Source: Escherichia coli (GTDB lineage: Bacteria; Pseudomonadota; Gammaproteobacteria; Enterobacterales; Enterobacteriaceae). Taken from it: a stretch of 64,000 bases of DNA. The stretch lies in the NCBI RefSeq assembly GCF_013122565.1, contig NZ_CP053258.1. One strand, written 5' to 3'. A program made the translations under genes and the position numbers. The notes under the pieces were generated by a model. That model saw only the letters and a list, made by a program, of their open reading frames with translations. It was not told where the DNA came from and ran no database searches. Below, in pieces: positions 20,938 to 21,204 of the stretch (the stretch's first letter is position 1; each line of letters opens with the position of its first letter).

Positions 20938-21204
20938 ATGGAATGGCTGGTCAAAAAATCGTGCTGCAATAAACAAGATAACAGACATGTACTTATGCTC
21001 TGCGATGCTGGCGGCGCGATAAAAATGATCGCCGAAGTGAAGAGTGACTTCGCCGTGAAAGTGGGGGATTTACTCTCACCTTTGCAGAATGCGCTTTACT
21101 GTATTAATCGTGAAAAGCTGCATACGGTGAAAGTCCTCTCTGCAAGCTGTTATAGCCCCGATGAGTGGGAACGGCAGTGTAAAGTGGCAGGGAAAACTCA
21201 GTAA
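20938..21204 (+). CDS. pmrD: PmrD connector protein (signal-transduction adaptor)
   Basis: 88 aa from [10 protein letters not shown]...; track ORF starts 10 codons upstream; 3-prime end overlaps convergent arnF by 7 nt. Confidence 0.85.

Follow-up and report, generated by a model that had tools for sequence, protein, structure and literature searches.

Overlapping transcripts of neighbouring genes that lie on opposite strands are familiar from the classical excludons of Listeria, and from Staphylococcus aureus, in which overlapping 3' UTRs are cleaved by RNase III. Among convergent genes of E. coli, many pairs end transcription by polymerase collision at stem-loop bidirectional sites (Wang et al., bioRxiv 10.1101/2022.10.23.513370), and the coding sequences may themselves overlap: an E. 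coli genome has 663 overlapping adjacent pairs, 75 of them convergent (Huvet & Stumpf 2014, PMC4161906). The pair considered here, arnF-pmrD, is listed among the 165 convergent excludons of MG1655 obtained with ExcludonFinder (Nucleic Acids Res 2025, PMC12288877), having been called in at least 50% of 58 MG1655 RNA-seq transcriptomes; that article also remarks that arnF and pmrD act in one pathway.

We have analysed the junction of these two genes in a stretch of 64,000 nucleotides of E. coli DNA (assembly GCF_013122565.1, contig NZ_CP053258.1), the whole of which is referred to below as the window. The PhoP-PmrD-PmrA circuit, to which both genes belong, controls lipid A modification and resistance to polymyxin and colistin. 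In this circuit PhoP activates pmrD, whose protein product protects PmrA in its phosphorylated form; PmrA in turn activates the arn (pbgP) operon (PMC2565834, PMC3140997). In Salmonella pmrD and arn are induced together in low Mg2+ (PMC3140997, PMC2565834), and PmrA represses pmrD, a repression that does not occur in K. pneumoniae (PMC2565834).

Gene ends at the pmrD-arnF junction

The genes around the junction, and the overlap itself, are as follows.

19473..20828, + strand: menE, final gene of the men cluster, upstream of pmrD and co-directional with it (ORF list, annotation)
20938..21204, + strand: pmrD coding sequence, 88 aa, ATG start, TAA stop at 21202-21204 (sequence and ORF list)
21198-21204, both strands: tail-to-tail overlap of pmrD and arnF, TCAGTAA, 7 nt (read directly)
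21584..21198, - strand: arnF coding sequence, 128 aa, ATG at 21584..21582, TGA stop at 21200..21198 (sequence and ORF list)
21584..21919, - strand: arnE, upstream of arnF in the same operon, with a 1-nt overlap with arnF (ORF, NCBIfam, K-12 annotation)
21916..23568, - strand: arnT, same operon, with a 4-nt overlap with arnE (ORF list, K-12 annotation)

The final gene of the arnBCADTEF operon is arnF, so that arnE and arnT are in the path of any long read-through from pmrD, while arn read-through past pmrD would be antisense to menE. The + strand letters at 21180-21209 are taaagtggca gggaaaactc agtaacgttg. On this strand pmrD ends GGG AAA ACT CAG TAA, and on the - strand arnF ends ACA AAA CAA CGT TAC TGA, its stop appearing as TCA at 21198-21200 of the + strand. 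The shared bases comprise, for pmrD, the third base of Thr87, the last codon Gln88 and the stop, and for arnF the third base of Arg127, the last codon Tyr128 and the stop. The initial annotation had placed the pmrD stop at 21204, 7 nt into arnF with its stop at 21198, and both the sequence and the ORF list bear this out. Since both are genuine genes, lie tail to tail on the two strands and share at least one base, pmrD and arnF form a convergent overlapping coding-sequence pair.

Could the overlap be an artefact, with one stop or one frame wrongly assigned? The idea comes solely from the initial annotation, which named mis-assigned stops as the conclusion to be drawn if the transcripts failed to overlap, and nothing was found in its favour. 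PmrD scores 176.9 bits against the NCBIfam PmrD equivalog (cut-off 96) and, with one substitution, matches the E. coli protein of known structure (PDB 2JSO/4HN7) end to end over its 88 residues. ArnF scores 139.6 bits against its own equivalog (cut-off 99), with residues 4-122 covered, and its ...KQRY tail is common to E. albertii and the window; ArnE is likewise above its NCBIfam equivalog cut-off. Both frames are open up to the assigned stops in the ORF list, and RefSeq/PGAP gives the same ends in all genomes inspected. The length of the PDB protein, the NCBIfam matches and the orthologue alignments thus rule out mis-assignment, and we regard the artefact as refuted, with a vanishingly small chance of being correct.

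The same overlap is present throughout the E. coli genomes inspected. In the RefSeq annotation of K-12 MG1655, arnF at 2372892..2373278 (+) and pmrD at 2373272..2373538 (-) overlap by the identical 7 nt, as they do in that of ABW_A19 and of four further lineages with identities down to 94.6% (PRO_A-1504-6M-A, E28, E41-1 and O157:H7 Vac_07.1). The locus was found in 5404 of 5426 complete E. coli genomes, and TCAGTAA is unchanged across 8 E. coli sequences. The region itself is variable: the best match to the 851 bp at 20800-21650 among the 5426 complete genomes is just 98.8% identical, with identities down to 94.6%, in keeping with an unusual degree of pmrD polymorphism reported earlier for E. 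coli. Sites that vary within E. coli are most concentrated in the menE-pmrD spacer (20%) and at the two ends of pmrD (12% and 15%).

Being a fixed property of the sequence, the overlap is no statistical signal to be set against chance. Of 10 convergent junctions in the part of K-12 that matches the 64-kb window, arnF/pmrD is the sole overlap, the other nine being gaps of 38-272 nt. It is therefore the tightest convergent junction locally, yet belongs to a well-populated class. The window is collinear with K-12 2332247-2394600, in reverse orientation and at ~97-99% identity, and it comes from another strain, ~98% identical to K-12. Two differences of gene content were seen along it. The K-12 genes yfbN, yfbO and yfbP (~2.5 kb, between yfbM and nuoN) are missing at window ~7013-7027. 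At 44619-46839 the window has an intact gene for a LysR-family regulator (44619-45497, -) and a divergent gene for an MFS transporter (45649-46839, +), where K-12 has only the yfaH pseudogene of 207 bp; K-12 thus appears to carry a deletion of ~1.9 kb relative to the LysR/MFS region.

Transcript ends and the wider distribution of the junction

How do transcripts end at a junction with no space between the genes? A consensus scan of the surrounding 1.4 kb gave no intrinsic terminator at the pmrD/arnF junction; the 4 terminator-like sites in this 1.4 kb, against 1.8 +/- 1.6 expected by chance, are all within coding sequence. The junction has no G+C-rich stem-loop with an A-tract and T-tract, such as a bidirectional intrinsic terminator has, and Rfam 15 has no match at gathering score anywhere in the 64-kb window. 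RNA folding after the stops is unremarkable, the z-scores being +0.28 beyond pmrD and -0.94 beyond arnF. A hairpin at 21290-21305, CTTCCCAGCCGGGAAG, was considered as a terminator and rejected: it lies inside arnF, where it encodes the conserved LPGWEG motif, and in Citrobacter and Salmonella it is disrupted by E-to-Q and W-to-L changes, implying that it is incidental.

With a coding overlap of 7 nt and no terminator, the 3' ends of the pmrD and arnF mRNAs must overlap. The further contention of the initial annotation, that pmrD mRNA necessarily runs antisense into arnF, thus follows from the 7 shared bases together with the lack of a terminator at the junction. In each 3' extension C exceeds G through most of the initial ~300 nt, with C/G mostly 1.2-1.8, which is compatible with the loading of Rho once translation has ended; Rho-dependent termination is the likely fate of both transcripts. 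None of pmrD, arnF and menE appears in the supplements of Adams et al. 2021 (Term-seq) or Yan et al. 2018 (SMRT-Cappable-seq), probably as a result of poor expression in standard media.

The distribution of the junction was followed by a species-level genome scan with alignment of PmrD, which gave 10 loci in the few genera sampled, and to which 1 S. enterica locus was added. The junctions with arnF are as follows.

E. coli: TCAGTAA, 7 nt overlap
E. albertii: TCAGTAG, 7 nt overlap
S. enterica subsp. enterica, arizonae and diarizonae: TCATGA (a palindrome), 6 nt overlap
Citrobacter amalonaticus-type, three genomes: 3 nt gap
Citrobacter amalonaticus, fourth genome: 9 nt gap

As far as these sequences indicate, the conserved trait is the absence of an intergenic space or terminator, rather than the overlap as such. 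The protein alignments point the same way. The family model for PmrD (88 residues) stops at residue 85, and that for ArnF (128 residues) spans residues 4-122, leaving the overlap outside both. In the alignments the PmrD tail of Salmonella (...WQRLARKPS) differs from that of E. coli, and ArnF ends ...LPAPKQRY in E. albertii, ...LPARS in Salmonella, and ...LPAPRKTR, ...LPAQRKTC, ...LPAQRKRC or ...SPAAQKTR in Citrobacter. Given such variable C-terminal tails, the overlap would thus be made, in both proteins, of tail codons that look dispensable. Comparison of E. coli with E. albertii gives no sign of added nucleotide conservation around the junction; the divergence is 25% in the last 60 nt of each gene, versus 13-17% in the adjacent segments.

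Adjacency to arn is absent for the more distant PmrD homologues, those of Pseudocitrobacter, of Klebsiella aerogenes, of a Klebsiella/Salmonella-annotated paralogue and of two metagenomic sequences. The contexts of the first three of these homologues are MarR/MFS genes, an amn-like gene, or an island that contains SRAP and fimbrial genes. Since the distant homologues lie in unrelated contexts, the pmrD-arnF linkage is therefore limited, among the genera sampled, to Escherichia, Salmonella and Citrobacter amalonaticus.

Three of the loci that were examined deserve separate mention. A contig of 3112 bp binned in a Citrobacter metagenome-assembled genome (DXKH01000101.1) has a pmrD-arnF junction of the E. 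coli type, with an ArnF 97.7% identical to that of the window, and the same MAG has its own Citrobacter-type locus; the contig is probably a binning contaminant. Two divergent Escherichia lineages, Escherichia sp. MOD1-EC7003 (locus positions 3264-3600; 93.5% identity to the window) and SCPM-O-B-8794, labelled as E. coli (3250-3320; 90.4%), retain pmrD but have lost arnBCADTE and the greater part of arnF, with ais-like, nudI-like and yfaZ genes directly after the arnF remnant. In SCPM-O-B-8794 a deletion of ~13 nt, judged by eye, also takes out the usual pmrD stop; the resulting PmrD has 90 aa and overlaps the arnF remnant by 23 nt.

An incidental overlap or a regulatory device

Is the overlap a regulatory device, or simply the consequence of two genes having been packed closely together? 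We consider it probable that this is an ordinary, incidental tail-to-tail overlap, and that any interference is a by-product of the compact layout. In Escherichia, Salmonella and Citrobacter amalonaticus alike, pmrD abuts arnF with nothing between them, and small shifts of the stop codons within non-conserved tails would have given an overlap of 7 nt in Escherichia, an overlap of 6 nt in Salmonella and a gap of 3-9 nt in Citrobacter. As no terminator fits at the junction, the 3' extension of each mRNA must run antisense to its neighbour, in agreement with the published RNA-seq classification, and these extensions would most likely be ended by Rho acting on untranslated C-rich RNA past each stop, and by 3' trimming. 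Collision or duplex-RNA interference would then come with the layout and would be no selected device, its effect being probably small compared with that of the protein-level circuit.

An incidental origin is indicated by the location of the overlap in the tails, by a length that varies from +7 and +6 to -3 and -9 nt, and by the 25% divergence of its flanks. Several observations count against it. The tight abutment is kept across three genera and gives the sole overlap among the 10 local convergent junctions, a persistence and a local uniqueness that leave room for selection on the arrangement. Both genes, moreover, serve one pathway. In addition, repression of pmrD by PmrA occurs in Salmonella, which has the two genes convergent, but not in K. 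pneumoniae, and pmrD is unlinked in one K. aerogenes genome. Interference from arn read-through would also predict this pattern of repression and linkage, which is a correlation only. A regulatory coupling of the pmrD and arn units at the RNA level is possible.

The main alternative is a negative feedback of the excludon type, in which arn read-through past the arnF stop, with the operon switched on by PmrA, would cross all 267 nt of pmrD as well as its promoter and so lower pmrD, through head-on collision, promoter occlusion or cleavage of the duplex by RNase III. It would amount to a second arm of the repression of pmrD by PmrA, independent of the promoter. The absence of a terminator downstream of arnF speaks for it, as does the shortness of pmrD, all of which would be spanned by a modest 3' extension, and a very stable minus-strand hairpin just past pmrD (z -5.48) could shield the 3' end of such an RNA. 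Its sign agrees with the PmrA repression of pmrD that is present in Salmonella and absent in K. pneumoniae (PMC2565834), and K. aerogenes and Pseudocitrobacter have pmrD at a site away from arn. The pair is in the convergent excludon class in at least half of the 58 transcriptomes of the ExcludonFinder catalogue, but as the method is described there (PMC12288877) an excludon is called whenever coverage-defined transcript boundaries overlap. For coding sequences that overlap already, the call is nearly automatic once both are expressed; it shows co-expression more than effect, and so says little on the extent or the effect of the overlap. The joint induction of pmrD and arn in low Mg2+ in Salmonella also means that their expression is not mutually exclusive, and the Term-seq and SMRT-Cappable-seq supplements give no 3' ends for pmrD or arnF. 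The repression of pmrD has, moreover, a promoter-level explanation, Kato, Latifi and Groisman having reportedly ascribed it in 2003 to the binding of PmrA at the pmrD promoter. On balance we think this feedback unlikely.

Interference might also run in the opposite direction, with PhoP-induced pmrD transcripts, antisense to arnF, arnE and arnT, damping the expression of the flippase and transferase and so tuning the stoichiometry or timing of the final L-Ara4N transfer steps. There is no terminator past the pmrD stop, and the + strand beyond it is C-rich and unstructured for several hundred nt, so that read-through of some length is to be expected. Such damping would nevertheless oppose the role of PmrD itself, which is to activate arn, and an untranslated antisense RNA, being a typical Rho substrate, should be cut short. 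The arn operon is 7.4 kb long and has its own promoter, and a weak convergent promoter is unlikely to matter to it. We regard this direction of interference as highly improbable.

The minus-strand hairpin mentioned above belongs to an element at the other end of pmrD that folds on both strands.

20854-20950, both strands: long hairpin or imperfect palindrome spanning the pmrD promoter in the menE-pmrD intergenic region (inverted-repeat search)

Its perfect 15-nt arms are at 20855-20869 (CAGCCATTCCATTGC) and 20935-20949 (GCAATGGAATGGCTG), the right arm covering the pmrD ATG (20938). The site is thus at once the exit of arn read-through from pmrD and the entry of men read-through into pmrD. Compared with shuffled sequences, the fold is far more stable on both strands (MFE -36.4 kcal/mol, z -5.08 on the + strand; MFE -34.5, z -5.48 on the - strand). 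Its outer stem is also predicted as the minimum-energy fold for E. albertii, S. enterica and S. arizonae (z -3.0 to -4.6); it is weaker in one Citrobacter (z -2.95) and not present in two others. Over 15 sequences, 86.7% of cells are paired, with 2 compensatory pairs, the shuffle control being marginal (6/500); the clearest compensation, from G-C to A-U, is that of Salmonella, in which codon 4 of pmrD has changed synonymously from CTG to TTG. RNAalifold on a MAFFT alignment did not recover the hairpin. That the palindrome is a dispersed repeat was considered and rejected: only its two arms match within the window, and there is no Rfam match.

A conserved block resembling a PhoP box, GTTTATCTGTTAAT, lies within the hairpin loop, and a PhoP-dependent transcript would probably lack the left arm. 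The predicted fold may mask pmrD translation in men read-through RNA, or may protect the 3' ends of arn or men transcripts. These two roles can be joined in a single proposal, in which arn read-through would end at, or be trimmed to, the hairpin at 20854-20950, giving a cis-acting, promoter-independent arm of the feedback from PmrA to pmrD, and in which the hairpin would also mask the pmrD start in men read-through RNA. PmrD would then be made only from the PhoP-dependent transcript starting inside the loop, and the feedback arm would exist only in those Escherichia, Salmonella and Citrobacter with a tail-to-tail pmrD-arnF arrangement. We consider this combination distinctly unlikely.

Comparison with described systems

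Both the overlap and the idea of coupling are already known, from the RefSeq annotation and from PMC12288877 respectively. As it stands, the junction is therefore of little import: the overlap is in the reference annotation, its class is common and the pair has been catalogued. If coupling were real, it would add a cis-acting layer, at the level of RNA or polymerase, to the PhoP-PmrD-PmrA circuit, and could help to account for the different PmrA feedback on pmrD in Salmonella and in Klebsiella. A search of the literature found no test of RNA-level coupling between pmrD and arn, and nothing specific to the pair beyond the ExcludonFinder work; one paper on transcriptional interference does not mention these genes.

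The ExcludonFinder entry concerns the same gene pair, in MG1655 rather than in the strain of the window, and in the accessible part of the article it comes with neither 3' ends, nor an overlap length, nor a functional test for arnF-pmrD (PMC12288877). The feedback from PmrA to pmrD described in Salmonella (Kato, Latifi and Groisman 2003, cited in PMC2565834) involves the same genes as the read-through idea and has the same sign, but is reported to act at the level of the promoter instead of through convergent transcription.

The Listeria and S. aureus cases share with pmrD/arnF the arrangement of opposite-strand neighbours with overlapping transcripts, and hence the scope for interference and duplex cleavage. 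The absence of a terminator at the junction would permit a long antisense extension over the neighbouring gene. The hallmarks of those cases are, however, a long repressing antisense RNA, reciprocal expression and dependence on RNase III, whereas pmrD and arn are co-induced in low Mg2+. As regards reciprocity the literature on pmrD/arn is mixed, with co-induction in low Mg2+ on the one hand and PmrA repression in Salmonella on the other.

There is also a resemblance to the overlapping bidirectional terminators (Ju et al. 2019; 10.1101/2022.10.23.513370), which are likewise convergent and have no room for two terminators. In contrast to those sites, the pmrD/arnF junction lacks a stem-loop to position the collision; polymerase collision is nonetheless a possible route of termination for pmrD/arnF, as at the sites of Ju et al. 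2019 and Wang et al.

Finally, the junction is most simply placed with the convergent pairs of the E. coli genome survey (PMC4161906), which it matches in having a short 3' overlap that arises by movement of stop codons, with both stops within the last codons of the partner gene. It differs from typical convergent pairs of that survey only in that pmrD and arnF belong to one regulatory circuit.
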